Shown here one piece after another: positions 1,706-25,649 of a DNA stretch of 32,000 bases. Source of the DNA: Candidatus Nitrospira inopinata (GTDB lineage: Bacteria > Nitrospirota > Nitrospiria > Nitrospirales > Nitrospiraceae); the NCBI RefSeq assembly GCF_001458695.1, contig NZ_LN885086.1, forward strand, positions 2,190,001 to 2,222,000, given 5' to 3'. The position numbers were made by a program, and so were the translations under genes. The notes beneath the pieces were generated by a model that saw only the letters and a list, made by a program, of their open reading frames with translations, was not told the DNA's origin and ran no database searches. Position 1 is the stretch's first letter. Every line of letters begins with the position of its first letter.

Positions 1706-1814
1706 CCGGTCTTGTTCTCATCCTGCCCGGCGGATCCTTCCATCCCCGCCCGGCAAATTCTGCCACGGTGACCTTCGCGTGCCAAAAACACTCGGTTTTT
1801 ACGCAGAAAACCGC

Positions 1815-1830
1815 TGGCACGCAGTTTGAA
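1815..1830 (+). promoter_or_regulatory. sigma-54 (-24/-12) type promoter candidate upstream of the glycan operon
   Basis: TGGCACG-CAGT-TTGAA versus consensus TGGCACG-N4-TTGCW. The -24 element is perfect; the -12 element reads TTGA instead of TTGC. It lies in the only sizeable intergenic gap (1706-1853) before the 22-kb operon. The predicted start (~1840) would leave a very short leader containing the GAGGAGGG SD (1842-1849). Confidence 0.45.
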
Positions 1831-1853
1831 CCTCCCTTTGTGAGGAGGGCCTC

Positions 1854-2627
1854 GTGAAAGCCGTGATTCTGGCTGGAGGAGTCGGGTCTCGATTAAGCGA
1901 GGAAACCATCGGCCGTCCCAAGCCGATGGTGGAGATCGGCGGCAGGCCGATCCTCTGGCACATCATGAAGATCTATTCGGCCCATGGCATCAATGACTTC
2001 ATTATTTGCCTTGGCTACAAGGGTACCATGATTAAGGACTACTTCGTGAATTATTCCCTGTATCGCTCGGATATCACCATCGATGTGGCTCACAACAAGA
2101 TCGAGGTCCATCACAACCATGCCGAGCCGTGGCGTGTGACGCTGGTGGATACGGGCGAACACACGATGACGGGGGGGAGGCTCAAGCGGGTGGCGCGATA
2201 TGTCGAGGGAGAAGAGTGTTTCTGTTTTACGTACGGCGACGGGGTGGCGGATGTCGATCTGACCGCGGAGATCGCCTTTCATCGGTCGCATCGCAAATTG
2301 GCGACGGTCTGCGCGGTGTTGCCACCCGGTCGGTTCGGCGCATTGGAACTGACGCACGGGCGAGTGGTGAAGTTTACGGAAAAACCCATGGGCGACGGCG
2401 GCTTGATCAACGGCGGTTTTTTTATTCTGTCGCCGAAGGTGATCGACTTCGTGGAACAGGACTCGACGGTGTGGGAGGGCCAGCCACTATATCGGCTGGC
2501 AACGTCGGGGGAACTGATGGCGTTCGAACACCGGGGATTTTGGCACCCGATGGATACGATTCGAGACAAGAATCACCTGGAGGAACTCTGGCGATCGGGG
2601 CGGGCGCCATGGAAAGTGTGGGAGTAA
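1854..2627 (+). CDS. rfbF: glucose-1-phosphate cytidylyltransferase
   Basis: GTG start 4 nt after GAGGAGGG. The N-terminus 'KAVILAGGVGSRLSEETIGRPKPMVEIGGRPILWHIMKIYSAHGINDFIICLGYKG' is the characteristic RfbF/DdhA signature. 257 aa is the typical length. Confidence 0.93.
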   Translation: MKAVILAGGVGSRLSEETIGRPKPMVEIGGRPILWHIMKIYSAHGINDFIICLGYKGTMIKDYFVNYSLYRSDITIDVAHNKIEVHHNHAEPWRVTLVDTGEHTMTGGRLKRVARYVEGEECFCFTYGDGVADVDLTAEIAFHRSHRKLATVCAVLPPGRFGALELTHGRVVKFTEKPMGDGGLINGGFFILSPKVIDFVEQDSTVWEGQPLYRLATSGELMAFEHRGFWHPMDTIRDKNHLEELWRSGRAPWKVWE

Positions 2628-3688
2628 AGCTTCCCTCTGCCGAATTTTGGCGTGGCAAACGGGTGTTGGTCACCGGCCACACGGGGTTCAAGGGAAGCTG
2701 GCTGGCACAGTGGCTGTCGAGGTTAGGTGCGTCTGTCGCGGGTGTCGCATTGCCCCCTGCGACAGAACCCAACCTGTTTACCCTGGCCAGGATCGACAAA
2801 CTGCTCGACGGCTACTTTTGCGACATTCGGTCGTTCGATTCTCTGATTGGGATTATCAAGGCGGTGCAGCCTGAAATCGTCTTTCATCTGGCGGCCCAGC
2901 CGCTTGTGCGGGTGGGATATCGGATGCCGGTCGAAACCATTGAGACGAACGTGATGGGTACCACGTACCTGCTCGAAGCCTTGCGGACAGTAAAGTCTCT
3001 CCTGGTGGCGGTCTTGGCGACGACGGACAAGGTCTATCGGAATCGAGAACATTTGCGCTCCTTCCGGGAAGACGATCCGTTGGGGGGCGATGATCCCTAC
3101 AGTGCCAGCAAGGCGGCGATGGAGATGATTGTTGACAGTTATCGACGGTCATTCTTCGATGAGCGGGGTGTGGCGGTCGCGACGGTCAGAGCTGGCAATG
3201 TGATCGGTGGGGGGGATTGGTCAGCCGATCGGCTGATTCCGGATGCCATTCGGGCGTGGAGCAAGGGGGAGGTTTTGCGCGTCCGGCGCCCCGATGCGGT
3301 ACGGCCTTGGCAACATGTGCTGGAGCCTCTCTGCGGGTATCTTCGTTTGGCGGAATTGCTGTGGGATACACCTTGTCTTGCCGGTCCCTATAACTTTGGT
3401 CCCGACAGTCGGGCGACGGTCGCTGTTCGCGGCGTGGTGGAGTTGGCCCGTGCTGCTTATGGCGGAGGTGACGTTGCCTATGGAGATGGCCATGAAGGGT
3501 TGCATGAGGCAGGAGCGATCGCTTTGGAGTCGACCAAGGCGAAAAGCATCCTCGGGGTGGTTCCTCGGTGGGTGATCAAAACAGCGATAGAACGGACGAT
3601 GAGATGGTATCAACGGCAGGCTGCCGGCGAGGACGCGCGCCGGTTGTGCGAGGAAGATTTCGTCTCTTATGAGGAGCAACCCGCATGA
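2609..3688 (+). CDS. rfbG: CDP-glucose 4,6-dehydratase
   Basis: Internal ATG 2609 of track ORF 2129..3688; the upstream 160 codons overlap rfbF and look non-coding. '[15 protein letters not shown]' is a Rossmann motif and 'YSASKAA' is the catalytic YxxxK. 359 aa. Overlaps the rfbF end by 19 nt. Confidence 0.9.
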
Positions 3689-5025
3689 CGGCCGCCAACG
3701 TCGAAGTCTTGAAAGAAGAAATTCTGCGGTTGGTGGGACAGTACGCCGAGGAAGCCTTCAAAGACCATCCTTTTGTGCCAGATGGTTCCCCGGTTCCCGC
3801 GTCCGGCAAGGTGATTGGCGCGCCGGAATTGCAAAACGCGGTGGAGGCGGCGTTGGATGGTTGGCTCACGGCGGGACGGTTCAATGACCAATTTGAAGAT
3901 CGGCTGGCCACCGTCATGGGAGTGAAATACGCGCTCACGACCAACTCCGGCTCGTCGGCCAACCTGCTCGCCCTGTCTGCCTTGACGTCGCCGGAGTGGG
4001 GAGAACGGGCACTTCGGCCGGGAGACGAAATCATTACCGTGGCAACGGGATTTCCCACAACGGTCAATCCGATTCTTCTGCTTGGGGCTGTGCCGGTGTT
4101 TGTCGATGTGTCGGTGCCGACCTATAACGTTGATGTGGCCCAGTTGGAACAAGCGGTGTCGGAGAAAACCAAGGCGATCGTACTCGCCCACACGCTGGGG
4201 AATCCGTTCGATGTGGCGCGCGTCATGCGAGTCGCCCGCCAATATGGTTTGTGGGTGATCGAGGATTGTTGCGACGCGCTGGGATCCACCTATGAAGGGA
4301 AACCGGTGGGGACCTTTGGCGACATCGGCACGCTGAGCTTCTATCCGGCCCACCACATCACGACGGGCGAGGGCGGCGCCGTCGTGACAAACAACACAAA
4401 ACTCAAGCGGGTTCTGGAGTCGTTTCGGGACTGGGGACGTGATTGCTACTGTCCGCCGGGCCGGGATAATACCTGTGGACGTCGCTACTGCTGGCAACGG
4501 GGGGAACTGCCCAAGGGATATGATCACAAGTACATCTATACACATGCCGGCTATAACCTCAAGATGACCGATTTCCAGGCCGCGGTGGGCCTGGCGCAAT
4601 TGGAGCGACTGCCCGACTTCATCAAGATACGAAAGCGAAACTTCCATTATCTGAAAGAAGGATTGGCTGACCTGCAAGAGTGGCTCATGTTGCCGGAGGC
4701 CACGCCACGGTCCGATCCGTCTTGGTTCGGGTTTCCGATCATGCTCCGCCCCGGCGCCCCAATTACGAGGGTTGAGCTGCTGGAGTCGCTCGATCGTCAT
4801 CGGATTGGGAGTCGCCTTCTCTTCGGAGGGAACCTGACTCGTCAACCATACATGCGAGGGCGGCTCTTTCGCGTGCACGAAGAATTGAGTACGAGCGATT
4901 TGATTATGAACCAAGCGTTCTGGGTCGGCGTGTATCCTGGGCTCGATCGCGTCAAATTGGACTTTGTCATTGAAACCATCACGCGAACGGTGAAGGAGAA
5001 ACAGCGTTTATGCCTGGCTTGCTGA
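3685..5025 (+). CDS. rfbH: CDP-6-deoxy-L-threo-D-glycero-4-hexulose 3-dehydrase (E1; RfbH/DdhC/AscC type, PMP- and [2Fe-2S]-dependent)
   Basis: ATGA overlap with rfbG. DegT/DnrJ/EryC1 fold, with the Schiff-base Lys replaced by His ('[13 protein letters not shown]', first His codon 4351-4353). Cys196, Cys254, Cys256 and Cys264 give exactly the C-X57-C-X1-C-X7-C spacing reported for the E1 iron-sulfur site (Cys codons at 4270, 4444, 4450, 4474). Confidence 0.9.
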
Positions 5026-5609
5026 TAACCAAGCCCGATTCGGTCAAGCAATTGTTTACGGTGACGCCCTCGACCATTTCTGGCTGTGTCGAGCTGCGGC
5101 CACAGGTGCGGGAAGACCGGCGAGGGCGGTTCGTCAAGGTCTTCCATCGACACATGTTTGAGTTGTTGGGACTGTGTGCCGATTATGAGGAAGAATATTA
5201 CTCGGTCTCGCGGAGAGGCGTGATCCGGGGCTTGCATTTTCAGGTCCCTCCGATGGATCACGACAAGCTCATTTATTGTGTCAGCGGCCGCATTCAGGAT
5301 GCCGCTGTGGACCTTCGCTGCGGCTCGCCGACCTACGGGCGATACGCTCTGTTCGACGTATCGGCGGAAGAAGGAAACATGGTCTATGTCCCCCGCGGCC
5401 TCGCTCACGGGTTTTGTACGCTCAGTGAATCCGCGATCGTGGTCTATAAAGTCTCAAGCGTCTATTCAGCAGAGCATGATCGTGGCCTCTTGTGGAATTC
5501 GGCAGGGATTCCCTGGGCGATCGGTGACCCCCTCGTGTCGGACCGGGACTTAACCCATCCTCCGTTTGAGTCGTTCAGAAGTCCGTTCAGCTATGGAGCG
5601 GGCTCATGA
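5010..5609 (+). CDS. RmlC-like cupin sugar-nucleotide epimerase (candidate CDP-4-keto-3,6-dideoxyhexose 5- or 3,5-epimerase, AscE-like)
   Basis: ATG 5010 lies behind GAAGGAGAA and overlaps the rfbH end by 16 nt. 'RGLHFQ', '[19 protein letters not shown]' and '[18 protein letters not shown]' match the RmlC-family His/Lys/Tyr catalytic blocks. Confidence 0.8.
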
Positions 5610-6514
5610 GAATTCTGGTCACCGGCGCCACCGGCTTTCTTGGGTCGCATGTCGTGCCGGCGTTGCGGAAGCAAGGGCATGAAGTGGGCTGTGTCGCACG
5701 AACCGGCTCTCTCCTCAGCCACTCACACGAGGGCTGCTCCGTATGGCGAGTGGCGGACAACGGCCAAGGGCTCCACGCGGCCGTGCAAACGTTTCGACCG
5801 GAGGTTGTCGTCCATTTGGCCGCGCTCTATGTGTGCGAACATCGTGAAAAAGATATCAGTCCCCTGATCAGAGCGAACGTTGAGTTCGGCGCACATCTGC
5901 TCGACGCCATGGGAAAGGGGGGATGCGACGCGCTCGTCTATGCGGGTACGGCCTGGCAGCACTACCGGAATCAAAACTATTGCCCGGTCAATCTTTATGC
6001 CGCGACCAAACAGGCGTTTGTGACAATCGCCGACTACTATCGCGATGCCGATGGCCTGCGTCTCCTGGAACTCCATTTGTACGACAGTTACGGGCCGGAT
6101 GATCAAAGGCCGAAACTGCTCAACCGGTTGTTGGCCGTGGCGGAGACTGGCGAAGAGCTTGCGATGTCCCCCGGCACCCAACTGCTGCATTTGGTGCACG
6201 TCGATGATGTCAGCCGAGGTATCGCAATGGCCTGCGAGCAGGTGGTGTCCTTCAGGCCAGGAGAGCGGCGTGTCTATCGGCTTCCCTCGGAGAGGGCCGT
6301 GACGTTGCGGGAGCTGGTCGAGAAACTGAACGAGGCGGATCCCTTGCGCACCGTGAAGGTGCGGTGGGGAATGAGACCTTTTCGCCGACGCGAAATGTTG
6401 CGGCCGTGGGAAGGGGTGCCGGTTTTGCCGGGCTGGAAGGCAGCGGTTTCTTTGAAGGCGGGATTAGAGGCGATCTGCCGCCTTCGCCCCATCGGCAATC
6501 GGATTGGAGGGTAG
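5606..6514 (+). CDS. NAD(P)-dependent SDR epimerase/reductase (candidate CDP-4-keto-dideoxyhexose 4-reductase)
   Basis: ATGA overlap with the epimerase gene. 'ILVTGATGFLGSHV' is a GxxGxxG motif and 'YAATKQA' is YxxxK. 302 aa, a similar size to RfbS/RfbJ/AscF-type reductases. Confidence 0.8.
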   Translation: MRILVTGATGFLGSHVVPALRKQGHEVGCVARTGSLLSHSHEGCSVWRVADNGQGLHAAVQTFRPEVVVHLAALYVCEHREKDISPLIRANVEFGAHLLDAMGKGGCDALVYAGTAWQHYRNQNYCPVNLYAATKQAFVTIADYYRDADGLRLLELHLYDSYGPDDQRPKLLNRLLAVAETGEELAMSPGTQLLHLVHVDDVSRGIAMACEQVVSFRPGERRVYRLPSERAVTLRELVEKLNEADPLRTVKVRWGMRPFRRREMLRPWEGVPVLPGWKAAVSLKAGLEAICRLRPIGNRIGG

Positions 6515-6515
6515 A

Positions 6516-7556
6516 ATGTCCCTGCCGCTGGTCAGTCTCTGCATTCCCAATTACAACAATGAGCGATATCTGGACGTCTGCATCAGGAGCGCACTCTCTC
6601 AAACGTGGCCCCATGTCGAAGTTGTCCTTGTGGACGACTGTTCGACGGATGGCTCGTTCTCACTGGCCCGAAAATATGAGGAGCGGATTCGGCTGTTTCG
6701 CAATGAGAAAAATCTTGGACAGCCGGCGAACACCAATCGCTGCGTCGAGTTGGCGCGAGGAGAATTCGTGGCCATCGTGCACGGCGACGACTATCTCCTG
6801 CCGACCTTTGTAGAACGGTTGGCGCCGCTTCTGCAGCAGTACGAACGAGCCGCTCTCGCGATCGGTGAACGGTACGAGACCGACGAAACAGGCGTGCTAC
6901 GGAACGTGACGCCGTTTTACACAACCGATTGCCTGATTCCTGGAGAAAAACAGGCCAAAGTATTCATGTTCATGTCGTTTCCGCCTTGCCAGGTGTTGAT
7001 CAGACGAGCCGTTTACCGGAGCATCGGAGGGGCCGATCTCCGCCACGTGGTGAATCTGGACGGATTGCTGTGGTTCAAATGTGCGCTGGTCGGCGACATC
7101 GTCTATGTTCGTGAGCCCGTCGGTGTGTATCGAAAACACGGCGAAAGCACGACCGCCCGCTACAACAGACGCATCGATCACATGATCGAATATTACATGA
7201 CTTTATTGGCGATGCAGGAGGCGGGACGAGGCAGACCGTATTTGGAGCGATATTATGACGCGGCCGTCAAACGCGTGGGCGAGTTGACGGTTCGGTATTG
7301 TCGAGAGGTGTTTCGCGAAAAGAATTACGAGTTGGCCAAACGGTATCTTGCCTTGGCGACAGTGTTTGATCCCGCAATCAGCAAATCGAATCAGTGGCGG
7401 GCGCTGCACTATTGCCTTGAGAGCGAAGATCGCGACCCTCATGACCTGTATCGGCGGCTGATGGAGGGAGAGACTCAGCAGCGCATCACCAGTTATGAAC
7501 CGCCGGAGGGATTTCAAGCACTGAAAAGTCAACAAGCTGGAGGGGCGTCGTCATGA
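6516..7556 (+). CDS. family-2 glycosyltransferase
   Basis: ATG 6516 (the track starts at TTG 6504) lies 1 nt after the upstream stop and is preceded by GGAGG. 'VSLCIPNYNNERYLDVCIRSALSQTWPHVEVVLVDDCSTDGS' and 'HGDDY' (DxD-like) are typical of GT-A/GT2. Confidence 0.85.
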   Translation: MSLPLVSLCIPNYNNERYLDVCIRSALSQTWPHVEVVLVDDCSTDGSFSLARKYEERIRLFRNEKNLGQPANTNRCVELARGEFVAIVHGDDYLLPTFVERLAPLLQQYERAALAIGERYETDETGVLRNVTPFYTTDCLIPGEKQAKVFMFMSFPPCQVLIRRAVYRSIGGADLRHVVNLDGLLWFKCALVGDIVYVREPVGVYRKHGESTTARYNRRIDHMIEYYMTLLAMQEAGRGRPYLERYYDAAVKRVGELTVRYCREVFREKNYELAKRYLALATVFDPAISKSNQWRALHYCLESEDRDPHDLYRRLMEGETQQRITSYEPPEGFQALKSQQAGGASS

Positions 7557-8923
7557 ACGCCTGTGCTCTCCTGGTGAGAGATCGCAAACCGCTTGTTCCA
7601 TCAGTATTTGAACGAGCCATCGATCGTCGACAGAGGATCATTCTCTACGGGGCCGGCAAGATCGGACAACGGGTCGCGGCGGCTCTCAGGTGGTTCGGTC
7701 ATTCGCCGGCGTTCTTCTGGGATCGATGTGCCGATCTGTTGGGAAGCGAGCGCAATGGCATAGAGGTCTTGCTCCCCGATTTGTCGACGATGTCGCTCGA
7801 AGAACGAGCTGATTGCCTCGTCGTTGTCACCATTTTTTCAGAGAATGTCGCCGAGCGGATCAGACAAGAATTGCTTTGTGCGGGATACCCGAATGTCTTG
7901 TCCGACAAGACGACCATCGGCGGCCTGCTTGAAGCGGAATGTGTATCCCGTCTCCAAGCCGGCCGTTTCGAGTTCCAGCTCATGCGGTGTCATATCTGTC
8001 CGGTCGTCAGTGATGTGAGAAGCCGATGCGAGATCTTCGAACGTCATGTACGGGATTGCTTCGTCAGGGGCGTCGAAGCGCAGTTCGTTCCCGAAGTGGT
8101 CGTACCCTCGATGGGAGTTCTGATTTCCAATAAGTGCACGATGACATGCGAAGGCTGCAACCACCTCCGGGATCATTATGCACCGGACGATCATCGGGAT
8201 CTTGCTCCCGATCAGGTGATCGAGGATCTGAGGAAACTTCTTTCGGCGGTGGATCTGGTCAACAAACTTGTGCTGGTCGGCGGAGAGGCGTTGCTCCATC
8301 CGCGCGTCGAGGAGATCATCAATCAGCTCCTCCGGCTGCCCAAAGTAGGGATTCTCCAGATCATTACCAATGGAACGGTCGTGCCCAAAAGCCGCCGCGT
8401 GTTCGAACTGCTGGCGAGTCCTCGCGTCATCGTCGAGATCAGCGATTACGGCGATCATGTGCCGGAGCCCTTGCGGCCCAATGTCTCGCGGTTCATCGAG
8501 CACCTGGAGAATCATCGGATCCAGTATCGGCGGATTCGGACGTTGCAGTGGTTTGATTTCGGAGGATTTGAGGATCGAGGCTACACGGTAGAGGAAATTC
8601 GGCGTGTCTATCGCACCTGCTGTTTCCTGTCTCACGACCTTTTCGACGGCCGGTTGTACAAGTGCAGCAGAAGCGCTTATGGAACCGTGATCGGCAAGGT
8701 GCCGAACTATCCAGGTGACTACGTCGACATCCGAAGCCTGGATCGGCAGTCGCTGAGGATGCGTCTGATCGAGTTTCTATCGTTGGAATACGTGGAGGCG
8801 TGTCGTCACTGTAACGGAGCCTCCGCCGCGTTGACGATGGAAGCGGGCAGGCAGATCGTCGTCGTGAAAAGGGGGCATCTTCGCCGGGATGGTTCCGGGT
8901 TGGAAGCGGCCGCCGGCGTTTAG
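7553..8923 (+). CDS. radical SAM enzyme with N-terminal Rossmann-like module and Cys-rich (SPASM/twitch-like) C-terminus
   Basis: ATGA overlap with the GT2 gene. 'ILYGAGKIGQRV' is a nucleotide-binding-type N-domain (aa ~25-130). CX3CX2C motif 'CTMTCEGC' at 8135-8158. C-terminal cysteines occur in 'CCFLSHD..YKCSRS..CRHCNG'. Confidence 0.8.
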   Translation: MNACALLVRDRKPLVPSVFERAIDRRQRIILYGAGKIGQRVAAALRWFGHSPAFFWDRCADLLGSERNGIEVLLPDLSTMSLEERADCLVVVTIFSENVAERIRQELLCAGYPNVLSDKTTIGGLLEAECVSRLQAGRFEFQLMRCHICPVVSDVRSRCEIFERHVRDCFVRGVEAQFVPEVVVPSMGVLISNKCTMTCEGCNHLRDHYAPDDHRDLAPDQVIEDLRKLLSAVDLVNKLVLVGGEALLHPRVEEIINQLLRLPKVGILQIITNGTVVPKSRRVFELLASPRVIVEISDYGDHVPEPLRPNVSRFIEHLENHRIQYRRIRTLQWFDFGGFEDRGYTVEEIRRVYRTCCFLSHDLFDGRLYKCSRSAYGTVIGKVPNYPGDYVDIRSLDRQSLRMRLIEFLSLEYVEACRHCNGASAALTMEAGRQIVVVKRGHLRRDGSGLEAAAGV

Positions 8924-8948
8924 CCGCGCGTACGGAAAGGAGACCGTC

Positions 8949-9977
8949 ATGAAAGCGCAATTGAAACCCCGGATCAACCTCGACCATCGGACGCCGCTCC
9001 AGGACGTGATTCCACTTTCCACGCCGATGGTGCTGTTCGTCGATCCCGTCGATACATGCAATTTTCGTTGTACCTTTTGTCCGACGGGAGACCGAGAGCT
9101 GATCAAATCCACGGGTCGGTGGCAGGGGCGAATGTCGCTCGATTTGTTTAAAAAGATCATCGACGACCTGGCCGAATTCGAGCAGCCGATCAAAGTCCTG
9201 CGTCTGTACAAGGAAGGCGAGCCGCTCCTACACACGCAGTTCGCCGAGATGGTGTGGTATGCCAAGCGGAGCGGCCGCGTGGAATATATCGACACGACGA
9301 CCAATGGCTATTTGCTGAGTCCGGAGCGGGTGGGGCCGATTCTTGACGCCGGGATCGATCGCATCAACATTTCCGTTGACGGGATGTCGAGCGAACAATT
9401 TTGGCGGTTCACTAAAACCAGGGTCGATTTCGAGAAATACGTCGAGAACATCCGGCATCTCTATGAGCGCAAGGGATCCTGCGAGATCTGCATCAAAATT
9501 CCGGGCGACATCCTGTCCGATGACGACAAACAACGGTTCTTCGACACCTTCGGCGACTACGCGGACCGAATCTCAATCGAAAACTTCGCGCCCTGCTGGC
9601 CGGAATTCGACGTGGAAGCGCGCAGCGGCATCGCGATCACGGAGGGGATTTACGGCAACCCGATCAAGGAAGTGTCGGTCTGCCCCTATATTTTTTACTC
9701 CATGGCGGTGAATACCGACGGAACGGTCAGCCTTTGTTTTTTGGACTGGGCCCGCAAGCTCGTCATCGGAGACACACGTCTTCAATCTCTTAAGTCGATC
9801 TGGGACGGCGAGTCGATGCACCGGCATCGAGTCGCCCACTTGAAGGGACGGCGCAAGGACAATCCGACTTGCGCCGACTGCGGCCAGCTCAGCCACTGTC
9901 TGCCGGACGATATCGACGCGTACGCCGCCTCTTTGCTGACGAGAATTGAACGGCCACAAAAAACCGGGAGTCGCTGA
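8949..9977 (+). CDS. radical SAM / SPASM-domain enzyme
   Basis: ATG 8949 lies behind AAGGAG; the track start 8889 is an upstream extension. CX3CX2C motif 'CNFRCTFC' at 9057-9080. The C-terminal 'CPYIFYSMAVNTDGTVSLCFLDW ... CADCGQLSHC' is typical of a SPASM auxiliary-cluster region. Confidence 0.85.
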   Translation: MKAQLKPRINLDHRTPLQDVIPLSTPMVLFVDPVDTCNFRCTFCPTGDRELIKSTGRWQGRMSLDLFKKIIDDLAEFEQPIKVLRLYKEGEPLLHTQFAEMVWYAKRSGRVEYIDTTTNGYLLSPERVGPILDAGIDRINISVDGMSSEQFWRFTKTRVDFEKYVENIRHLYERKGSCEICIKIPGDILSDDDKQRFFDTFGDYADRISIENFAPCWPEFDVEARSGIAITEGIYGNPIKEVSVCPYIFYSMAVNTDGTVSLCFLDWARKLVIGDTRLQSLKSIWDGESMHRHRVAHLKGRRKDNPTCADCGQLSHCLPDDIDAYAASLLTRIERPQKTGSR

Positions 9978-11668
9978 TGTCAAGCACCGGACGAGAAGAA
10001 CGGATCCTGTTCATCATTCCACCCTATTTCAACGTGGACGACTACATGGGAGGCGATCGCGCGAACGTGTTGCCGTCGTTCACGATCCCATACGGCATTC
10101 TGTCTCTGGATGCCTATCTGAAGGCTCATTGCACGGTGCCGGTGACAGTCGACATTCTGGATTTGAATTTGTCGCTGCGCCAAGCCGTGGAGACGGGAAA
10201 CGTCTCGCGAATCCAGGCCGTGTTCGATGAACTGATCAGAGAGCGGGTTCAAATCGCTCGGCCCGTGATCATCGGAATTTCGGCGCTGTTTAACGTGTCG
10301 TTCCGATACATGGGACATATTTCCGCCGTGGCGAAAGCCGCCGCCCCCGGTGCGTTGATCGTCGCGGGTGGAGGGCTTCCGTCAGCCGGGTTTCGGCAAG
10401 TGTTGGAACATTGCCCGGCCATTGACGCGGTATGTCGGGGAGAAGGAGAGATCCCGTTGCGCGATCTGATCGAAGCCGGTGACCGAGCCGATCTGTTGGA
10501 GCGGCACCCTTCATGGATGACCAGAGGAGGAATTGCGGCGGGTAAAATTCCCGCCCATACGTTCGTCGAGAACCTCGATGACATTCCCATGCTCGATTAC
10601 GGCTTAGTCGATTTGGACGATTACAACTCCCGTTCTATCGACAAACGATACAGCGGCCAGCCGAAACGCGAGATGGCGATCCATACCTCACGGGGCTGTC
10701 CTTTTCTTTGCGTGTTTTGCGCGAACCCCTCGTTGCACGGGGCGGATGTGCGGGCCATGAGTGTGGCGCGCGTCGCCGCCGAGGTGCGTCGGATGAAAGA
10801 ACAGTGGGGCATGACCGTGTTGCTGATCGAGGACGACCACTTCTTTTTCGACAAAGCGCGGGCGAAGCAGGTCTTGCGTGAATTGATCGATCTCGGCGTG
10901 CGCGTGGAGTTTCCCAATGGAATCGCCGTCTATGCCATCGACGAGGAGGTGGCGAGCCTGTTCCAACAAGCCGGAGTGTCCACGGTGGCGTTGGCGGTCG
11001 AATCAGGATCCGACTACGTTCTTCATCGCATCATCAAGAAGCCGTTGAAGACCAGCCTCGTGAAAGGCAAGGTGGAACTCTTGCGAAAATACGGGGTGCA
11101 AAGCCACGTCTTCATCGTGCTGGGGCTGCCGGGAGAAATGGACGAGCACCGGCTGCAAACGCTCGATCTGCTGCTGGACGTCGGGTTCGACTGGGTGCAC
11201 GTCTTTTGCGCCGTGCCGATCTTGGGCAGCCGTCTCTACGACATCTGCGTGACCAACGGATACGTGGACACGGGAGATTTCCTTGATCACGTCAACACCA
11301 AATCGGTCATCCGGGCCCCCGGCGTCGATCCGGAAGCCGTTCAGGCGTTCGCCTATGAGATGAACCTGCTCGTCAACTTCGTCCACAACTACAACCTGAG
11401 GGTCGGACGATTCGAAACGGCGGCCAAGTACTTTGAGAACGTGACCGGCAAATATCCCGACCATGCGCTGGCCCATCATGCCCTCGCCAGGGCTTACGAG
11501 GGGCTCGGGCGAGAAGAGGAGGCGGACCGCTGTCGCCGTCGCTATCAAGACATCATCGAGCGGGATGAGTGGTGGAGGGAACGAGCGCGGAAATATGGTT
11601 TGTCGGACGGCGGAGTCTCGGCGGCGGTCCCGCTCGCCGGGAATCACCCTGCCCTCATAGAGTCATGA
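9977..11668 (+). CDS. cobalamin-binding-domain (class B) radical SAM enzyme with C-terminal TPR-like tail
   Basis: ATG shares its A with the upstream TGA (TGATG at 9975-9979). The N-terminal region ('ILFIIPPYF ... VIIGISALF ... IVAGGGLPS ... CRGEGE') is B12-binding-type. CX3CX2C motif 'CPFLCVFC' at 10697-10720. The C-terminal 'AKYFENVTGKYPDHALAHHALARAYEGLGREEEADRCRRRYQDI' is TPR-like. Confidence 0.85.
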   Translation: MSSTGREERILFIIPPYFNVDDYMGGDRANVLPSFTIPYGILSLDAYLKAHCTVPVTVDILDLNLSLRQAVETGNVSRIQAVFDELIRERVQIARPVIIGISALFNVSFRYMGHISAVAKAAAPGALIVAGGGLPSAGFRQVLEHCPAIDAVCRGEGEIPLRDLIEAGDRADLLERHPSWMTRGGIAAGKIPAHTFVENLDDIPMLDYGLVDLDDYNSRSIDKRYSGQPKREMAIHTSRGCPFLCVFCANPSLHGADVRAMSVARVAAEVRRMKEQWGMTVLLIEDDHFFFDKARAKQVLRELIDLGVRVEFPNGIAVYAIDEEVASLFQQAGVSTVALAVESGSDYVLHRIIKKPLKTSLVKGKVELLRKYGVQSHVFIVLGLPGEMDEHRLQTLDLLLDVGFDWVHVFCAVPILGSRLYDICVTNGYVDTGDFLDHVNTKSVIRAPGVDPEAVQAFAYEMNLLVNFVHNYNLRVGRFETAAKYFENVTGKYPDHALAHHALARAYEGLGREEEADRCRRRYQDIIERDEWWRERARKYGLSDGGVSAAVPLAGNHPALIES

Positions 11669-12951
11669 GAGTCTTGCACATCACTGCCCATCTTGGCGGC
11701 GGGGTTGGCAAGGTCTTGTCCGGCGTGGTCGCCGAATCGGCGCGACGCCGTGACGACACGCGCCATACCATTGCCTGTCTCGAGGTGCCGGAGAAGCGCA
11801 CGTTTCTCGACCGTGTCCTTTCATGGGGAGGAGAGGTGCTGATCGCTCCCTCGTTCGACCGCCTGGCCGAAGAGGTCGACCGCGCCGATATCGTGCAAGT
11901 GGAATGGTGGCACCATCCCACTGTCGCGGGATGGCTGTGTTCCGGCGTTCTGCCTTCCATGCGATTGCTCGTCTGGTGCCACGTGTCCGGGCTGTATCCT
12001 CCCGTTATTCCCCCCGAGTTTGTTTTGTCGGTTCATCGATTTCTTTTTACGTCGCCGTGCAGTTGGGAGCACCCGACCTTGGCGGCCTTGCGGCCCAGGC
12101 TCAAGGGGCGAGCGGAGGTGGTTTTTGGCTCAGGCGGGTTTGATGATCTGCCTCCTCCGCCGGAGCGGGTCTTTGAAACGTCGCTACAAGTAGGGTACGT
12201 CGGCTCCCTCAATTTCTCCAAACTTCATCCGCGCATTTTGGACTTTGTTCAGGCCGCCCGTCTGCCGAACTTTCGATTGGCTCTTGTTGGTGATCCGGTG
12301 ACGGGGCAGCAATTGATAGCCGAGGCGGCGATGATGGGGGTAAGAAACCGGCTTGACGTGCGGGGGTATCGCGAACAGGTTTCGGCGGAGTTAGTTGGGT
12401 TCGATGTTTTCGCCTATCTTCTCAACCCATTCCATTACGGCACAACGGAAAATGCGTTGCTTGAAGCGATGGCCATGGGAGTTGTGCCGATCGTACTCAA
12501 CAATCCAGCGGAGCGATGTGTGGTCTCGCACGGGGAAACCGGCGTGATTGTCAATGGTCCTTCTCAATTCGCCGATGCGCTGGACTGGCTGGCGGCTCAC
12601 CCCTTGGAACGAGCAAGGTTGTCGGCGAACGCCAGTCGTCTGGTGCGCCGGCGCTTTGCCATTGGTCGTACTGTTGCGGGATTGGAACATCATTATCAGC
12701 GGTTGTTCACCGAGCCAAAACGCTCCTTCGACTTTCGGCCGATCTTCGGAGAAGAACCGGCCGATTGGTTTCGGTCTTGCCAGGGAGATGAAGCCTGGAG
12801 GTTTCAGCAGAATGGCATGCTGCATGACGCCGCCAGGCGAGGGCCCGCGGTGCTCTACGAACGGACCAAGGGGTCCGTTTTTCACTACCATGCCGTCTAT
12901 CAGGCGGACGAACGGTTGGCTCGATGGGCGAAACAGCTCGATGCCGCATGA
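11665..12951 (+). CDS. GT-B fold glycosyltransferase (GT4/GT1-like)
   Basis: ATG 11665 overlaps the upstream stop (ATGA); the track start 11569 is an extension. 'MRVLHITAHLGGGVGKVL' is a typical N-terminus and 'GTTENALLEAMAMGVVPIV' is the E-x7-E donor-binding motif. Confidence 0.8.
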   Translation: MRVLHITAHLGGGVGKVLSGVVAESARRRDDTRHTIACLEVPEKRTFLDRVLSWGGEVLIAPSFDRLAEEVDRADIVQVEWWHHPTVAGWLCSGVLPSMRLLVWCHVSGLYPPVIPPEFVLSVHRFLFTSPCSWEHPTLAALRPRLKGRAEVVFGSGGFDDLPPPPERVFETSLQVGYVGSLNFSKLHPRILDFVQAARLPNFRLALVGDPVTGQQLIAEAAMMGVRNRLDVRGYREQVSAELVGFDVFAYLLNPFHYGTTENALLEAMAMGVVPIVLNNPAERCVVSHGETGVIVNGPSQFADALDWLAAHPLERARLSANASRLVRRRFAIGRTVAGLEHHYQRLFTEPKRSFDFRPIFGEEPADWFRSCQGDEAWRFQQNGMLHDAARRGPAVLYERTKGSVFHYHAVYQADERLARWAKQLDAA

Positions 12952-14117
12952 CATCGTTCCACTCGCTCCCGACCATCGCCATGGCGCGCGAACTTCTGTG
13001 GCAATTGACATCGTCCCGTTCCCCGGTCCGTCATCAGCCTGTCGATAAGCCGCTCATCCTGTATGGATCGGGGAAACTGGGCCGAATGGCGGGAGAACTG
13101 TTCAGGCGGCTCAATATTCCCATTGCCTATGCCGTGGATCGTGCTTGTCGCACAGGCGATCGGCTGCTCGACGACGTCCCCGTCATCCGACCAGAGGCCG
13201 CAGATCAGATCGATCGGGAAACCTGCCTGATCGCGGTCTGCATCGTCACCGCCCCCTATGAACCCATTCGAGACGAACTCGCGGCCATGGGGTGGCGGCA
13301 TATTTTTCCCGTCTATGATGTCTTGGATGCCTATCGCGATCGACTCCCCCTCGGCAACGGCTGGTTTGCGGGAGTCTTGAATGATGAAGACATCAATCAG
13401 ATCGACGAGGTTCTTGCAGGTTGGAGCGACGACTGGTCGCGAGCCGCCCACCTTCAGGTTTTGGCCTGGCGTTTGCACAGAATGGAATGGGAATTTGACC
13501 GGGCGCCGGTGTGTATCGAAGATCGATACTTCATTGAGCCTGTGCGGCTGGCGATGGGATTACGGGAGCGCTTTCTTGATGCAGGCGCCCACCATGGGAC
13601 GGTGATCGCCAAGTGGTTGGAACTGGTTCGTCATCAATGTGACAGCGTGATGGCCGTCGAGGCCGATCGCGATAATGTGGCGCACTTGCGAAGATGGGTG
13701 GCGACACTACCCCGCGCGATTCGGGAAACAATCATGATCAGGGATTGTGCGTTGGCAGAAGAAAGCGCCGAGAAACACTATCAGCAAGGGTGGGGATTTT
13801 CGTCACGCATTGACCCGCGTGCGGCCTGGCCTGTTCAAGCCTTTCGTCTTGATGATCTCGATTTCCCTCTGACTTTCGGGAAAATCCATTTGGAAGGCGG
13901 CGAACTCAATGCGCTCCGGGGAGGAACCGAGACGCTCCGCCGCTGTCGTCCCATTTTGGCGATCACGACCTATCACAACGCCGATGGATTGTGGCGCATT
14001 CCCCGATTCCTGATGGAGACGTTGCCGGATTATCGATTTCTCATGAGATTGCACGGGTGGTGCGGGACCGGCTCGGTCGTCTATGCCATTCCGAATGAAA
14101 GGAGGAGTGTGGCGTAA
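12948..14117 (+). CDS. FkbM-family SAM-dependent methyltransferase with N-terminal Rossmann-like module
   Basis: ATG 12948 overlaps the upstream stop (ATGA). The N-domain 'LILYGSGKLGRMAGELFRRL' is homologous to the N-domain of the 7553 radical SAM gene. FkbM-like blocks are 'FLDAGAHHGT' and 'KIHLEGGELNALRG'. Confidence 0.75.
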   Translation: MTSFHSLPTIAMARELLWQLTSSRSPVRHQPVDKPLILYGSGKLGRMAGELFRRLNIPIAYAVDRACRTGDRLLDDVPVIRPEAADQIDRETCLIAVCIVTAPYEPIRDELAAMGWRHIFPVYDVLDAYRDRLPLGNGWFAGVLNDEDINQIDEVLAGWSDDWSRAAHLQVLAWRLHRMEWEFDRAPVCIEDRYFIEPVRLAMGLRERFLDAGAHHGTVIAKWLELVRHQCDSVMAVEADRDNVAHLRRWVATLPRAIRETIMIRDCALAEESAEKHYQQGWGFSSRIDPRAAWPVQAFRLDDLDFPLTFGKIHLEGGELNALRGGTETLRRCRPILAITTYHNADGLWRIPRFLMETLPDYRFLMRLHGWCGTGSVVYAIPNERRSVA

Positions 14118-17100
14118 TGGGCTTGATCAATATTCTCCTCCCGACCATTCGGTTTTCCGCCATGGCCAAGGACATCATGGTCCAACTCTTCAGGGCAGGA
14201 GAAGAGAACCGCGACGTTCACGTCACCATCGCCGATGGGCAGGAGAATGAAGAAAAGAAGAGGTGGATCCTCGCGTCCGCCGATTTGCTGAGCAAAGACG
14301 GCCGGTTTGCCTACATCGGGTTACAGAACCCCACCGAACGGTTGTACCGAGCCGCGCAGATCGAATCGGAATGGGTTCTGCTGGTCGCGGACGACGACCT
14401 CTTCAGCATCAACTATTTGCGATGCGCTCTCGACGCCGTCCGAACGGCGGCGCCGGCCGTGACGGCGTTCGTGCCCCGCCTTTATCTTAGTTACTCGCCC
14501 AAGACGCACCTGCTGTATCGGCTGAAACCGATCAATGGACCCGACCAGCGCGAGAGACTCACGTCCCTCTTCACCCAAGGTCACAACGGTCTCTTGACCT
14601 TCGGAGTGATGCGGCGCCGTTTGTTTTGGGAGTGGATGGATTTTGTCAGAACGAAACCCATCTGGCCGTCCTATAGTGATCAATTGTTCGTCAGCTACCT
14701 GGCGATGAAGGGGTGGCTGCTGCCCATGGCCGAGGAGTGTGCCATTCTCAAGGACGATGGCGACTGGCATGATCCGCCCCAGGCGATCCGCAAGGACGCG
14801 CGCAGCTATCAAGAAGAGTTTTTGACATTGTTTCATGAGGTGTTTTGGACGGCCGACCTGTTTGCGTTTTTGCGAGAGCGTGGTTTGGAAGACGAGGCCG
14901 TTCCCGCGGTGATGGGCAGAGTCAGGACGCTATTGGGCAACGGTGCCGCGAGTTTCCCTCTTCGTCTGTCTGTCTTGGACATCAAGCCCAGCCCCCGTGT
15001 GCGGGAAGCAAAGGAGTTTGTTGAACAACTGGCTGCCGAGGCGAACACCATGCTCGCCAAATCTCTCCATGAGCAGATCCGGTTTCTTGAGGAGATAGTC
15101 GAGGTGAGCCGGTCGTTGGGCTGGCAGTCTGGCCCCGCTTCCGCCGTGCCCGAACAAGACGAGCATGGAGGGAAAACGACTCCTGTCAGTCCCTTCATCA
15201 GTTCGGGAACGGAGAGCGGCGCGAGAGAAGCCGATCCGACGGTGTCGGTGATCGTGCCGTGCTACGCCCAGGCCGATTTTCTGGCCGAAGCGATTGAAAG
15301 TGTCGTGACCCAAACCTTCAGTGACTGGGAATGTCTCATCGTCGATGACGGCAGTCCCGACCATACCGCCCAAGTCGCCCGTGATCTTATCGCTCGGTAT
15401 CCCGACAAGCGGATTCGATTGATCCGCAAGACGAACGGCGGACTGTCCGACGCGCGCAACGCGGGTATCCGGGAGGCCCGCGGGCGATACATTCTTCCCC
15501 TTGACGCCGACGATCGGTTGGATCCGCGCTATTTGGCGGAGACCGTGCCGATTCTGGAAAGAAATCCCGACATCGCCATCGTCTATGTTGATGAACGGAC
15601 CTTTGGAGAGACGGAGGGCGTTCATCGTAAAGGCGTTGTGACATTGGAGAGTCTTCTCGTCGGCAATGTCCATGACTACTGCTCGTTGTACCGTCGCTCG
15701 GTGTGGGAACGGGTGGGAGGTTACTCTCCGGCTATGTATCTGGGCGCCGAGGATTGGTGCTTTTGGATCGGCGCAGCCAAACTTGGGTTTCGATCCTACC
15801 ACGTCGGACAACCGCTATTCTGGTATCGCAGAAGGCGCGGCACGATGGTGGAGCGGGTCCAGGCGAATATGAACGTGATCAAGGCGCACATTGTGTTCCA
15901 TTATCCGGACTTGTTTATCGAGTCTGGCAAAGAGAAGGCGAGGCGCATTCTCTCGTCGCCGAGTGAAGCAGTCCGCGAGCAGTTGAAAAAAGCTCGTGCG
16001 CTTCATCCTGACAATGAGCTGTTGGAAGTGTTTTCGCGGTTCGTGCAGGGCGACGAGGAAAGCGGCAAGCCGACTGCACTTCGGGGAAATGGAACGTGGG
16101 CGAACGAACGGGAGGCAAGATGGGTCGAAGTCGCGACCTTTCTTGAGCAGATCCTTCGAGAGATTCGCCGGAACGATCCCAACCGGCCCTTGCGGATTCT
16201 CGACGTCGGTTGCGGTTCCGGTTGGCTGACCGATCGTGTCTCGATGTACGGATCTTGCGAGGGAGTGGATCCCGATCCCCTCGCGATCGCCGACGCTCGC
16301 CGGCAGTTCCCGCATCTTCGATTTGAAGCCTGTGAGGCAGGCCGGCTTCCTCCGAGCCTCAAGACCGCCTCTTACGACATCGTCCTCTGCTCGCGGATGC
16401 TGGAGGGGATTAGACAGGAGATGCGGGATGCCATCTGCAAACAACTGACCCGTCTGTTGAAGCCGAACGGCCATCTTATTTTAACGATGCGGCGCGGCGA
16501 GATATGGGAACAATGGAGCAAAGCTGGGCTTCCCTCTAACCAAGCAGAAACGTGGATGACGGAGGCACAAGTCTCGGAATTGGTGGCTGCCCATGGTTTC
16601 CGACCGATCCAAGTTGAGAGACTCTATGTCGAGATTCCAGAACGTCGGTATGTTCCCGCTCCAACTCCGGCTGATCTGAAATCGAGAGAGCTGATTCCGC
16701 TGGATCAAGTATGGGTCTGCCGGTTGGGCATGCCCGCAAGCCCGTCGACTGTTCTCGGGCAGCCGACGGTCTCCGTGATCGTACCGACCTGCAATAGACC
16801 GGACAGGCTGCGCGAAACGTTACAGAGCGTGCTGGCTCAGAGTTACCGGGACTTTGAAATCATCGTCGTCAATGATGGAAATGTCGATGTGAGCTCCGTG
16901 ATCGGCGCGCTCAATACCGACGACCGCATCACCCTCATCAAACACGATCGCAACCGCGGGCTTGCCGCCGCGCGCAACACCGGTATCAGGGTGGCCAGGG
17001 GAAAATACATTGCCTATCTGGACGACGACGACCGCTATTTGCCCGATCATTTGGAGACGTTGGTGACCGTGTTGGAGAAGGGGCAATGCAAAGCTGCGTA

Positions 17101-19156: not shown

Positions 19157-19163
19157 GGAAAAC

Positions 19164-20363: not shown

Positions 20364-20374
20364 GTGAGGGACTT

Positions 20375-23930: not shown

Positions 23931-23934
23931 AGGG

Positions 23935-24821: not shown

Positions 24822-25649
24822 ATGGCTCTGATCGTCAACAACAATCCCGCGTCAATCGCGGCTCAGCGAAACCTGACGGTGAGTACCAATGCGTTACAGC
24901 GATCCGTCGAACGGCTATCGTCCGGTCTTCGGATCACCCGCGCGGCGGACGACGCCGCCGGTCTTGGATTGTCCGAGTCCTTGCGGGCGCAGATTCGCAG
25001 TATCAACCAGGCGACCCGTAACGCCTCGGACGGGATCAGTTTGACGCAAATCGCCGACGGCGCCGCTTCGGTCGTCGGCTCTCTGTTGGCGAGAATGCGG
25101 GAGTTGGCATCCCAGGCATCCAGCGGCACCGTCGGCTCGACGGAGCGGTCTTACATCGATCAAGAGTTCATTGCCCTGCGGTCTGAAATCGACCGGATCG
25201 CGCAAACCACCGAATTCAACGGTCAGGCCTTGACCAGCGGCTCCACCATCAGCTTCTCGATCGCGATCGGGTTTCGGAGCGGTACGGGCAACACCTTGTC
25301 GTTGGACTTGAACGACATCACGACAACGTCCTTAGGGCTCAGCAGTGTCAATGTGTCGACGTCCGGCAACGCCACGAGCGCCCTGGCAAACATTGACAAT
25401 GCCATCAGCGCGGTTGCGACCGCCCGAGCCGAGTACGGGTCCCTGCAAAACCGGCTGGAGGCCACGATTACAAACCTCCAAGTGACGAGCGAAAACCTGA
25501 CGGCTGCCGAATCCCGTATCCGCGATGCGGACATCGCCTACGAGACGTCGGTGTTTACCAAGAACCAGATTCTGGTTCAGACCGGCATCTCGGTTCTGGC
25601 GCAGGCAAACACGCTGCCGCAACAGGCTTTGGCCTTGTTGCAGCGGTAG
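24822..25649 (+). CDS. fliC: flagellin (short, 275 aa)
   Basis: Strong SD AAGGAGGAG. The N-terminal D0/D1 region 'MALIVNNNPASIAAQRNL...RLSSGLRITRAADDAAGL...' and the C-terminal 'GSLQNRLEATITNL...ILVQTGISVLAQANTLPQQALALLQR' are canonical flagellin blocks. Confidence 0.95.
   Translation: MALIVNNNPASIAAQRNLTVSTNALQRSVERLSSGLRITRAADDAAGLGLSESLRAQIRSINQATRNASDGISLTQIADGAASVVGSLLARMRELASQASSGTVGSTERSYIDQEFIALRSEIDRIAQTTEFNGQALTSGSTISFSIAIGFRSGTGNTLSLDLNDITTTSLGLSSVNVSTSGNATSALANIDNAISAVATARAEYGSLQNRLEATITNLQVTSENLTAAESRIRDADIAYETSVFTKNQILVQTGISVLAQANTLPQQALALLQR

Follow-up and report, generated by a model that had tools for sequence, protein, structure and literature searches.

This study concerns three consecutive genes for radical S-adenosylmethionine (SAM) enzymes, here called rSAM1, rSAM2 and rSAM3, at nt 7553-11668 of a 32,000-nt stretch of the Candidatus Nitrospira inopinata genome (contig NZ_LN885086.1 of assembly GCF_001458695.1, positions 2,190,001 to 2,222,000, forward strand), which in its full length is referred to as the window. 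The genes lie in a single closely packed array on the + strand that runs from nt 1854 to about nt 24600 and is followed by genes for flagellin, a FlaG-like protein, FliD and FliS. The array is a flagellin-glycosylation island, with sugar-nucleotide and glycosyltransferase genes contiguous with the genes for flagellin and the filament, and the flagellin is the likely acceptor of the glycan in this Nitrospira. From the sequence and fold comparisons given below we think it fairly probable that the three enzymes tailor the glycan of this island around a cytidine diphosphate (CDP)-linked 3,6-dideoxyhexose, the two with twitch domains by oxidation or epimerisation and rSAM3 by C-methylation. The genes that bear on this are the following.

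1854..2627, + strand: glucose-1-phosphate cytidylyltransferase, step 1 of the CDP-sugar route (TIGR02623 equivalog, 452.6 bits against a cut-off of 300)
2633..3688, + strand: CDP-glucose 4,6-dehydratase, start approximate, the frame being open from 2129 (TIGR02622 equivalog, 439 bits against 278)
3685..5025, + strand: RfbH/E1-type CDP-4-keto-6-deoxyglucose 3-dehydrase, for C3 deoxygenation (NF011936 RfbH equivalog, 715.6 bits against 423)
5010..5609, + strand: RmlC-like nucleoside diphosphate (NDP)-4-ketosugar epimerase (PF00908, 179.6 bits; TIGR01221, 156.6 bits against a cut-off of 155.75)
5606..6514, + strand: short-chain dehydrogenase/reductase, presumed 4-ketoreductase (PF01370, 115.5 bits)
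6504..7556, + strand: GT2 glycosyltransferase, partner of rSAM1 (PF00535, 102.6 bits)
7553..8923, + strand: rSAM1, 456 aa (PF04055, 37.3 bits), CX3CX2C motif CTMTCEGC at 8135-8158
8949..9977, + strand: rSAM2, 342 aa (PF04055, 75.2 bits; PF13186 SPASM, 49.9 bits), CX3CX2C motif CNFRCTFC at 9057-9080
9977..11668, + strand: rSAM3, 563 aa (PF02310, 54.6 bits; PF04055, 72.9 bits; TPR_19, 26 bits), CX3CX2C motif CPFLCVFC at 10697-10720
11665..12951, + strand: GT4-type glycosyltransferase, conserved partner of rSAM2 (PF13692 and PF00534)
12924..14117, + strand: FkbM-family methyltransferase with an N-terminal mini-Rossmann domain of the rSAM1 type (PF05050, 34.7 bits)
14117..19156, + strand: giant multidomain transferase, 1679 aa, containing three GT2 domains and one class I methyltransferase domain and ending in a TPR-like region
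24822..25649, + strand: flagellin, 275 aa, recognised from its translation, with the FlaG-like, FliD and FliS genes next to it

The closest protein matches of the window genes are proteins from Nitrospira metagenome-assembled genomes (MAGs), at 96-98% identity. All three radical SAM genes pass PF04055 (the Pfam gathering cut-offs are 29.5 bits for PF04055, 21.5 for PF13186, 32.1 for PF02310 and 25 for TPR_19), and their motifs translate exactly as a first-pass annotation, made from the letters of this DNA, had read them. The CX3CX2C motif, whose cysteines ligate the SAM-binding [4Fe-4S] cluster, is invariant in the alignments of all three families. The same annotation had given the spaces between the genes as 25 nt and 0 nt. 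The first of these is right (8924-8948), whereas rSAM2 and rSAM3 overlap by 1 nt in TGATG; GT2/rSAM1 and rSAM3/GT4 overlap in ATGA. Because a scan of nt 1500-20000 found promoter and terminator sites to be no more numerous than in shuffled sequence, the operon structure is read from gene packing alone.

Upstream of the trio lies a CDP-3,6-dideoxyhexose route, complete apart from E3. The pathway had been proposed before, and by family assignment it is confirmed at equivalog level for the cytidylyltransferase, the 4,6-dehydratase and RfbH/E1, in whose translation a C-x-C-x7-C motif can be read. As in the classical asc/rfb/ddh pathways, Ep, Eod and E1 are followed by an epimerase and a reductase, as for ascarylose, but the window adds three radical SAM enzymes and an FkbM methyltransferase, which are absent from the classical pathways. 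No E3 (a DdhD/AscD-type 2Fe-2S flavoprotein reductase) was found in the window, and none recurs in the related loci described below, including those that carry E1 (L001, L003 and L005-L020 in our numbering of loci). Since E1 is present and E3 is absent nearby, the electron donor for C3 deoxygenation would be unlinked or unconventional, and an unlinked reductase may serve in place of E3.

Domain architecture of the three enzymes

A canonical SPASM domain follows the pattern CX9-15GX4C...CX2CX5CX3C...C, with seven cysteines and two auxiliary [4Fe-4S] clusters. The twitch domain is an abridged SPASM domain with a single auxiliary cluster, ligated by four cysteines (a beta-hairpin pair plus a CX2C); twitch enzymes of the BtrN and SpeY type oxidise a secondary alcohol of a carbohydrate-like substrate by two electrons. 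The first-pass annotation had called rSAM1 and rSAM2 SPASM-like and their cysteine-rich C-termini consistent with SPASM/twitch clusters. The cysteines are real and conserved, and they match the ligands of twitch domains; both termini are better called twitch-like than canonical SPASM, and rSAM1 has no SPASM match at all. The features of rSAM1 are as follows.

7634-7900, + strand: N-terminal mini-Rossmann domain (approximately residues 28-116)
7940-8029, + strand: Cys4 linker (C130, C146, C149, C159)
8618-8812, + strand: twitch cysteines (C357, C371, C417, C420)

The N-terminal ~100 residues of rSAM1 form a four-stranded mini-Rossmann domain, and the four cysteines of the linker (C-X15-C-X2-C-X9-C) sit between this N-domain and the radical SAM core. 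The C-terminus shows only CX8GX4C plus CX2C, without any SPASM match in Pfam or NCBIfam, and on this pattern is predicted to be a 4-Cys twitch domain. Across an alignment of 43 rSAM1 sequences the invariant residues are G33xG35 and D57, which together are a dinucleotide-type fingerprint, the radical SAM Cys triad, GGE, and all of C357, C371, C417 and C420. The Cys4 linker is conserved in 36-37 of the 37 closer members, whereas distant relatives and SpeY lack it; its four cysteines may bind zinc or a third Fe-S cluster.

By both sequence and fold the best match of rSAM1 is SpeY of the spectinomycin pathway (PDB 7WZV/7WZX/7X0B), which likewise combines a radical SAM core with a twitch domain and whose substrate is a 6-deoxysugar moiety. 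The rSAM1 family profile finds SpeY with E 2.9e-19 and with all four twitch cysteines aligned, and an AlphaFold (AF2) model built on the family alignment, with a predicted local distance difference test (pLDDT) score of 91, has three SpeY entries ('Twitch Radical SAM Dehydrogenase') as its best PDB fold matches (E 3e-13, TMt 0.70). Relative to SpeY, to which it is 22% identical, rSAM1 has an extra N-terminal part of ~180 residues (the mini-Rossmann domain and the Cys4 linker) and is paired or fused with a GT2.

The N-domain is homologous to that of the FkbM enzyme encoded four genes downstream (BLASTP E 7e-07, 12924-13400 against 7553-7960). The corresponding region of distant rSAM1 relatives matches PglD_N and Methyltransf_14, which is the C-terminal domain of NDP-hexose C-methyltransferases, and by fold (Foldseek) the domain also matches the N-domain of VioB, solved with a bound thymidine diphosphate (TDP)-sugar, and the FkbM structure 2py6. 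The domain is found joined to enzymes of quite different kinds, among them a radical SAM core, O- and C-methyltransferases and N-acetyltransferases, whose common trait is an NDP-sugar substrate, and we therefore infer that in rSAM1 it holds the nucleotide of a CDP-sugar. The mini-Rossmann domain, which is also related to NeuD_N, looks like a portable module for binding nucleotides or nucleotide sugars. An exhaustive search for rSAM1 gave 134 representatives (50% clusters) at E < 1e-30, some with the N-domain and many of them SpeY-sized cores; because forms with the N-domain are among them, the architecture is recurrent. The idea that rSAM1 and rSAM2 are recent paralogues was rejected, as their profile-profile match (E 2e-07) is restricted to the radical SAM core.

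For rSAM2 there is an alternative in-frame ATG at 8889, but we place the start at 8949, because a Shine-Dalgarno sequence (GGAAAGGAGA) lies 7 nt 5' of that position and the homologues all begin MKA... The cysteines considered as auxiliary ligands are these.

9681-9899, + strand: rSAM2 auxiliary cysteines (C245, C263, C308, C311, C317)

The rSAM2 search gave 2,416 matches, and the homologues are 58-80% identical across phyla. In 22 aligned homologues the radical SAM triad, C178, C216, C245, C263, C308 and C311 are invariant, and C181 and C317 are nearly so. The SPASM pattern is partial, with CX12GX4C and CX2CX5C present and the X3C and final Cys absent; despite the PF13186 pass, the C-terminus is better described, on its cysteine pattern, as twitch-like rather than as a canonical 7-Cys SPASM domain. 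The best PDB profile match of the family, spanning core and twitch domain (E 2.4e-13), is BtrN, the 2-deoxy-scyllo-inosamine dehydrogenase of butirosin biosynthesis (PDB 4M7S/4M7T), itself a twitch radical SAM enzyme with a carbohydrate-like substrate. C263, C308 and C311 align residue by residue with BtrN cysteines, while C245 lies just upstream of the printed BtrN alignment and fits by spacing only; we take the BtrN ligands Cys 169/187/232/235 to be the counterparts of C245/C263/C308/C311. When the AlphaFold model of rSAM2 (pLDDT 82) was compared with known folds, BtrN came first (E 1.4e-13, TMt 0.73), followed by DesII and BlsE (E ~1e-12 to 2e-13), with anSME, MoaA and maturases of ribosomally synthesised and post-translationally modified peptides (RiPPs) lower in the list and EpeE also among the matches.

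These relatives are distant. Compared with BtrN (identity 16-18%), rSAM2 is ~90 aa longer, is extended at its N-terminus by 30 conserved residues, has four further conserved cysteines, and occurs in CDP-hexose/GT4 cell-surface glycan cassettes rather than in an aminoglycoside cluster; its dehydrogenase role is putative. DesII and BlsE are both carbohydrate-acting: BlsE acts on cytosylglucuronate, and DesII, which uses TDP-4-amino-4,6-dideoxyglucose, is a precedent for a radical SAM enzyme with an NDP-6-deoxyhexose substrate. However, rSAM2 is only 15-16% identical to them, and the window has no aminotransferase for a 4-amino sugar; DesII itself is without a twitch auxiliary cluster. Two of the sugar-acting precedents first put forward for the trio, BtrN and DesII, have turned out to be the top structure matches of rSAM2, and the twitch sugar dehydrogenase SpeY has joined them for rSAM1.

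rSAM3 is built differently, as a B12-binding domain, a radical SAM core and a helical C-terminal domain of ~100 residues.

10070-10468, + strand: B12-binding domain, residues 32-164 (PF02310)
Residues 237-399, + strand: radical SAM core (PF04055)
11351-11575, + strand: TPR-like C-terminal domain, residues 459-533 (TPR_19 at residues 477-517)

This is the class B radical SAM architecture that had been recognised at first reading, and on it rSAM3 is a predicted cobalamin enzyme. Its best NCBIfam match is NF038361 (P-methyltransferase), with 159 bits far below the cut-off of 575, followed by BchE (117 bits), HpnJ (112 bits against a cut-off of 577.6) and then PhpK; other class B families, PhpK, KedN5 and HpnR among them, score it far under their cut-offs. 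In PDB profile searches, AprD4 (the best match, E 9e-24, core residues 230-431 only) and MgmA match the core, TokK aligns over residues 90-399 with the cobalamin domain included, and CysS also matches. The class B methylases TokK, CysS and MgmA share the order of N-terminal B12 domain and radical SAM core with rSAM3, which differs from them in belonging to no curated family and in having its own highly conserved TPR-like C-terminal domain; methyl transfer by rSAM3 is putative. GenK, GenD1 and Fom3 are class B methylase precedents with sugar or CMP-linked substrates, and Fom3, which methylates a cytidylylated substrate, is a precedent for a CDP-linked one. The pairing of a glycosyltransferase with a radical SAM enzyme has a precedent in HpnI/HpnJ of hopanoid biosynthesis, in which a B12 radical SAM enzyme remodels the sugar after its transfer, but the HpnJ score of rSAM3 is as low as given above and hopanoid genes are absent.

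TPR-like tails had been noted in both rSAM3 and the giant transferase, with a hint that both might dock on flagellin. The tail of rSAM3 is indeed TPR-like: TPR_19 scores above threshold, and residues 468-522 match consensus TPR proteins in the PDB profile search. In the giant transferase (PF00535 three times at 354 bits, Methyltransf_25) TPR_19 is found only below threshold. Flagellin docking by the rSAM3 tail was rejected, since the tail is invariant family-wide, with many invariant polar residues across 25 homologues (57-85% identity), and is retained by the homologue of Hoeflea marina in a pyruvyltransferase/GT25 polysaccharide locus that has no flagellin, rSAM2 or GT4. The tail is thus a feature of the family and, by analogy with other class B enzymes, probably forms part of the substrate pocket.

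Occurrence and arrangement in related loci

A scan for rSAM2 with one genome per species found 239 relatives, and 80 of those loci were analysed together with four others, giving 84; the counts of adjacency cover 82 loci. Homologues of the window genes are shared as follows: GT4 in 77 of the 84 loci, FkbM with the N-domain in 60, the RmlC-like epimerase in 60, the 4,6-dehydratase in 57, the cytidylyltransferase in 55, rSAM3 in 35, E1 in 26, GT2 in 24 and rSAM1 in 18. De novo clustering adds a CmcI-like O-methyltransferase (34 loci) and a TylC3-like NDP-hexose C-methyltransferase (22 loci). The most frequent order is cytidylyltransferase, 4,6-dehydratase, epimerase, C-methyltransferase or E1, reductase, rSAM2, GT4, FkbM and sometimes the CmcI-like enzyme.

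Specifically, GT4 is the next gene 3' of rSAM2 in 59 of 82 loci, and in 71 of 82 it is found no more than 2.5 kb away. A homologue of the reductase of the window (tblastn, at least 50% coverage) lies upstream of rSAM2 on the same strand in 33 of 82 loci, within ~300 nt in 14 and within 2.5 kb in 29. The rSAM2-GT4 pair is conserved at 58-80% identity in Nitrospira, Proteobacteria, Bacteroidota, Chloroflexota, bacteria of the candidate phyla radiation (CPR) and a methanogenic archaeon. rSAM1 follows a different partner: wherever its homologues are at least 40% identical, GT2 is present, and four database proteins (P0024, P0026, P0027 and P0078) are GT2::rSAM1 fusions. In one metagenomic locus all three radical SAM genes occur in a new order, as rSAM2-GT4-FkbM, GT2::rSAM1 and rSAM3. 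Because GT2 and rSAM1 are always paired, rSAM2 and GT4 are adjacent and this locus is reordered, the trio is best seen not as a single functional unit but as three separable modules, namely GT2 with rSAM1, rSAM2 with GT4 (and often FkbM), and an optional rSAM3.

The hosts include Beta-, Gamma-, Alpha-, Delta- and Zetaproteobacteria, Planctomycetota, Chloroflexota, Fibrobacterota, Pedobacter, Chlorobium and the archaeon Methanospirillum purgamenti. A flagellin gene lies within 10 kb of the cassette in four loci (L002, L011, L013 and L045, from Mariprofundus, Nitrogeniibacter, Dechloromonas and one betaproteobacterial MAG), and in Mariprofundus (L002) sugar, glycosyltransferase and flagellin genes are arranged as in the window. 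In a CPR bacterium, by contrast, the cassette is found within a Wzm/Wzt polysaccharide export locus. The association with flagella is recurrent, yet not exclusive, as non-flagellar polysaccharide loci carry the cassette too, and its presence in this CPR bacterium, Pedobacter, Chlorobium and Methanospirillum speaks against a flagella-specific cassette.

A neighbour-joining tree of rSAM2 partly tracks the chemistry at C3 (E1 or C-methyltransferase) rather than taxonomy, which fits a cassette moving as a unit and an enzyme that would recognise the sugar. The locus of Methanospirillum purgamenti (L051, 10001-11002 and neighbours) has two rSAM2 copies, 64% identical to that of Nitrospira, with GT4 and two FkbM genes, and this archaeal rSAM2-GT4-FkbM set implies that the module has crossed between domains by horizontal transfer. 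In L044, L022, L026, L050, L054, L064 and L079 a single cassette contains two or three rSAM2 paralogues, which suggests that paralogues within one cassette attack different positions or sugars.

Other genes near the cassettes were also noted. Large TPR plus GT41 (OGT-like) proteins recur beside the cassette (L002 15960-20156, L029, L040, L045, L063, L066 and L076), one of them directly adjoining flagellin in Mariprofundus; they may be O-glycosyltransferases that attach the first sugar to the protein. In the window itself, two GT9 (heptosyltransferase-family) proteins surround a 620-aa DUF3880 plus Glyco_trans_1_2 (CgeB-like) protein at 19167-23930, an unusual set just upstream of the flagellin genes, and are followed by an open reading frame (ORF) of 226 aa at 23934-24614 with no family match. 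Upstream, at 69-1705, are an HD-GYP/HDIG protein and a 240-aa ORF (983-1705, no family match), both kept beside the cassette in other Nitrospira loci. Downstream, at 28286-31762, a GGDEF protein overlapping a possible PilZ-like ORF, an MCP-like protein and CheY were recognised by eye. The island is thus bracketed by c-di-GMP and chemotaxis-type signalling genes, the downstream ones as judged by eye.

Substrates and chemistry

The first-pass annotation had favoured a carbohydrate over a peptide as substrate, having seen no small ORF in or beside the trio, and both statements stand. Between nt 6504 and 14117 there is no free-standing small ORF, the ORFs of at least 20 aa outside the large genes all being nested in another frame or strand, and no small-ORF family recurs at the 253 junctions that flank the three families in the 84 loci. 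The median gap at these junctions is -1 nt, and the few gaps of at least 150 nt are genes overlooked by the simple ORF caller. No RRE or PqqD domain was found in Pfam/NCBIfam scans of the trio and no peptidase or RiPP transporter among the neighbours, which are sugar-nucleotide enzymes, glycosyltransferases and methyltransferases in a CDP-hexose/glycosyltransferase synteny that is tight across phyla. One conserved 70-aa ORF, between dehydratase and E1 in methanotroph loci (L001 5939-6151, L003 5680-5895), was considered as a peptide substrate and rejected. Together with a ~90-aa extension called as E1 (L001 5939-6400, L003 5680-6150), it resembles an inserted MazE/MazF (PemK-like, 'GDICVLPFPFTD') toxin-antitoxin pair, and it is absent from the window.

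For the proposed tailoring of the CDP-dideoxyhexose glycan, we infer the substrates (CDP-sugar or transferred glycan), the positions attacked and the outcomes of the reactions. In rSAM1, the mini-Rossmann domain would hold the nucleotide of the CDP-sugar while SAM is cleaved and the 5'-deoxyadenosyl radical takes a hydrogen from the sugar ring, probably from C2 or C4 as carbinol carbons. The electron would go to the 4-Cys twitch cluster, which resembles that of SpeY, and the product would be a CDP-ketosugar (-2 Da), or an epimer should the hydrogen be given back. This labile product would be handed directly to the co-translated or fused GT2; the lability of NDP-ketosugars would explain why the twitch enzymes are locked to or fused with a glycosyltransferase. 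rSAM2, with its BtrN-like twitch domain, would carry out a comparable radical oxidation or epimerisation once the 4-ketoreductase has acted, and so supply GT4. Its target would probably be C2, C4 or C5, because C3 has no carbinol hydrogen (it is a CH2 after E1 and tertiary after C-methylation). The FkbM enzyme would O-methylate, and rSAM3 would use cobalamin to methylate a sugar carbon that is not activated (+14 Da), its TPR-like C-terminal domain closing over the substrate. A fully Cys-ligated auxiliary cluster, common to the twitch enzymes, BtrN and SpeY, favours hydrogen abstraction and one-electron oxidation via the cluster, leading to a ketosugar.

Several points weigh against this proposal. 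The N-domain of rSAM1 has a classical GxGxxG...D fingerprint, and its profile also matches NAD-binding Rossmann domains (Rex, TrkA, 3nkl), so the domain could bind NAD(P) instead of a CDP-sugar. Four conserved cysteines of rSAM2 (C178, C181, C216 and C317) have no counterpart in BtrN, and the best NCBIfam matches of its core are protein or cofactor maturases (TIGR04317, tungsten-enzyme; TIGR04311, putative metalloenzyme). The top PDB match of rSAM3, AprD4, is a non-methylating diol dehydratase. None of the three enzymes passes an NCBIfam equivalog cut-off, and a full-text search of the literature returned no biochemical or genetic data on any of the three families. Finally, Nitrospira are as a rule aerobes, and it is unusual for oxygen-labile radical SAM chemistry to be directed at a surface glycan.

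A rival reading keeps the sugar substrates and changes the chemistry. rSAM1 and rSAM2 would then be dehydratases, deaminases or epimerases in the manner of DesII, AprD4 or NeoN, and rSAM3 would catalyse an AprD4-type dehydration or an HpnJ-type ring contraction. DesII is the second fold match of rSAM2, EpeE is among the others, and the extra conserved cysteines of rSAM2 could be hydrogen-atom donors, as in radical epimerases. The cysteine pattern, however, is that of a fully ligated auxiliary cluster, with four of four cysteines matching SpeY in rSAM1 and three of four matching BtrN in rSAM2, where C245 is placed by spacing. For rSAM3, besides the AprD4 match, the scores of HpnJ and BchE come near those of the methylases, but AprD4 covers the core only whereas the methylase TokK aligns through the cobalamin domain, and the best NCBIfam match is a B12 methyltransferase family. 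Moreover, a 3,6-dideoxy or 3-C-methyl sugar would lack the C3/C4 vicinal diol for an elimination of the DesII or AprD4 type. We therefore regard such other chemistry as unlikely, although it deserves serious attention.

Alternatively, the twitch enzymes may modify protein, rSAM2 maturing GT4 as anSME does sulfatases, or the enzymes acting on flagellin residues before or after glycosylation. This would suit the very tight adjacency of rSAM2 and GT4 across phyla (immediate in the 59 of 82 loci), the maturases among the NCBIfam matches of the rSAM2 core, the presence of anSME among the fold matches of both twitch enzymes, and the second PDB match of rSAM3, MgmA, which methylates a protein glutamine. 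The top sequence and fold matches, however, are the small-molecule sugar enzymes BtrN, DesII, BlsE and SpeY, and rSAM1 shares its nucleotide-binding domain with a sugar methyltransferase. rSAM2 also stands directly after a sugar reductase in the commonest order, its tree partly follows the type of sugar, and rSAM3 is found without GT4 or flagellin; protein modification is in our judgement quite improbable. About as doubtful is a stricter reading of the gene pair, in which rSAM2 and GT4 would be an obligate two-component system, rSAM2 either activating GT4 post-translationally or making a transient radical-derived sugar donor that is passed straight on. That the enzymes are RiPP maturases whose precursor gene was overlooked or lies elsewhere is scarcely credible, for although SPASM/twitch enzymes are best known from RiPP pathways and maturases of the SkfB, SuiB and CteB type occur lower in the fold lists of both twitch enzymes, neither a small ORF nor a RiPP-specific domain, peptidase or transporter accompanies them in the searches described above.

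Radical SAM enzymes in surface-glycan cassettes

To our knowledge, sugar radical SAM chemistry comes almost solely from antibiotic pathways (BtrN, DesII, SpeY, GenK, AprD4). No description of the rSAM1, rSAM2 or rSAM3 family was found in the full-text literature, where papers that at first seemed relevant dealt with unrelated radical SAM genes, and a 2026 review on B12 radical SAM enzymes is silent about sugars, CDP and flagella. The kinds of enzyme, twitch dehydrogenases and class B enzymes, are known. What is new, as far as the accessible literature shows, is their core role in widespread surface-glycan cassettes, the architecture of nucleotide-binding domain, Cys4 linker and twitch domain with its fusion to GT2, and the pairing of rSAM2 with GT4.

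Here, relatives of antibiotic-pathway enzymes are core parts of cell-surface glycan cassettes. These cassettes are very widespread: at 90% identity, rSAM2 by itself already forms more than 2,400 clusters. The enzymes show strong conservation, and horizontal transfer has carried them between bacterial phyla and to an archaeon. The rSAM2-GT4 pairing is clear and open to test in tractable hosts such as Methylotuvimicrobium buryatense, of which strain 5GB1 (locus L003) carries GT2-rSAM1-rSAM2; in Dechloromonas sp. ARDL1 (L013) the cassette adjoins fliC, fliD and fliS. If the two are a two-component system, a radical-SAM-dependent glycosyl transfer step would lead to a chemically undescribed surface sugar. 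More generally, if CDP-6-deoxy or 3,6-dideoxy hexoses are indeed oxidised, epimerised and C-methylated by these enzymes, the flagella, O-antigens or capsules of many environmental bacteria would carry undescribed sugars, and these may be keto, C-alkylated and heavily methylated.

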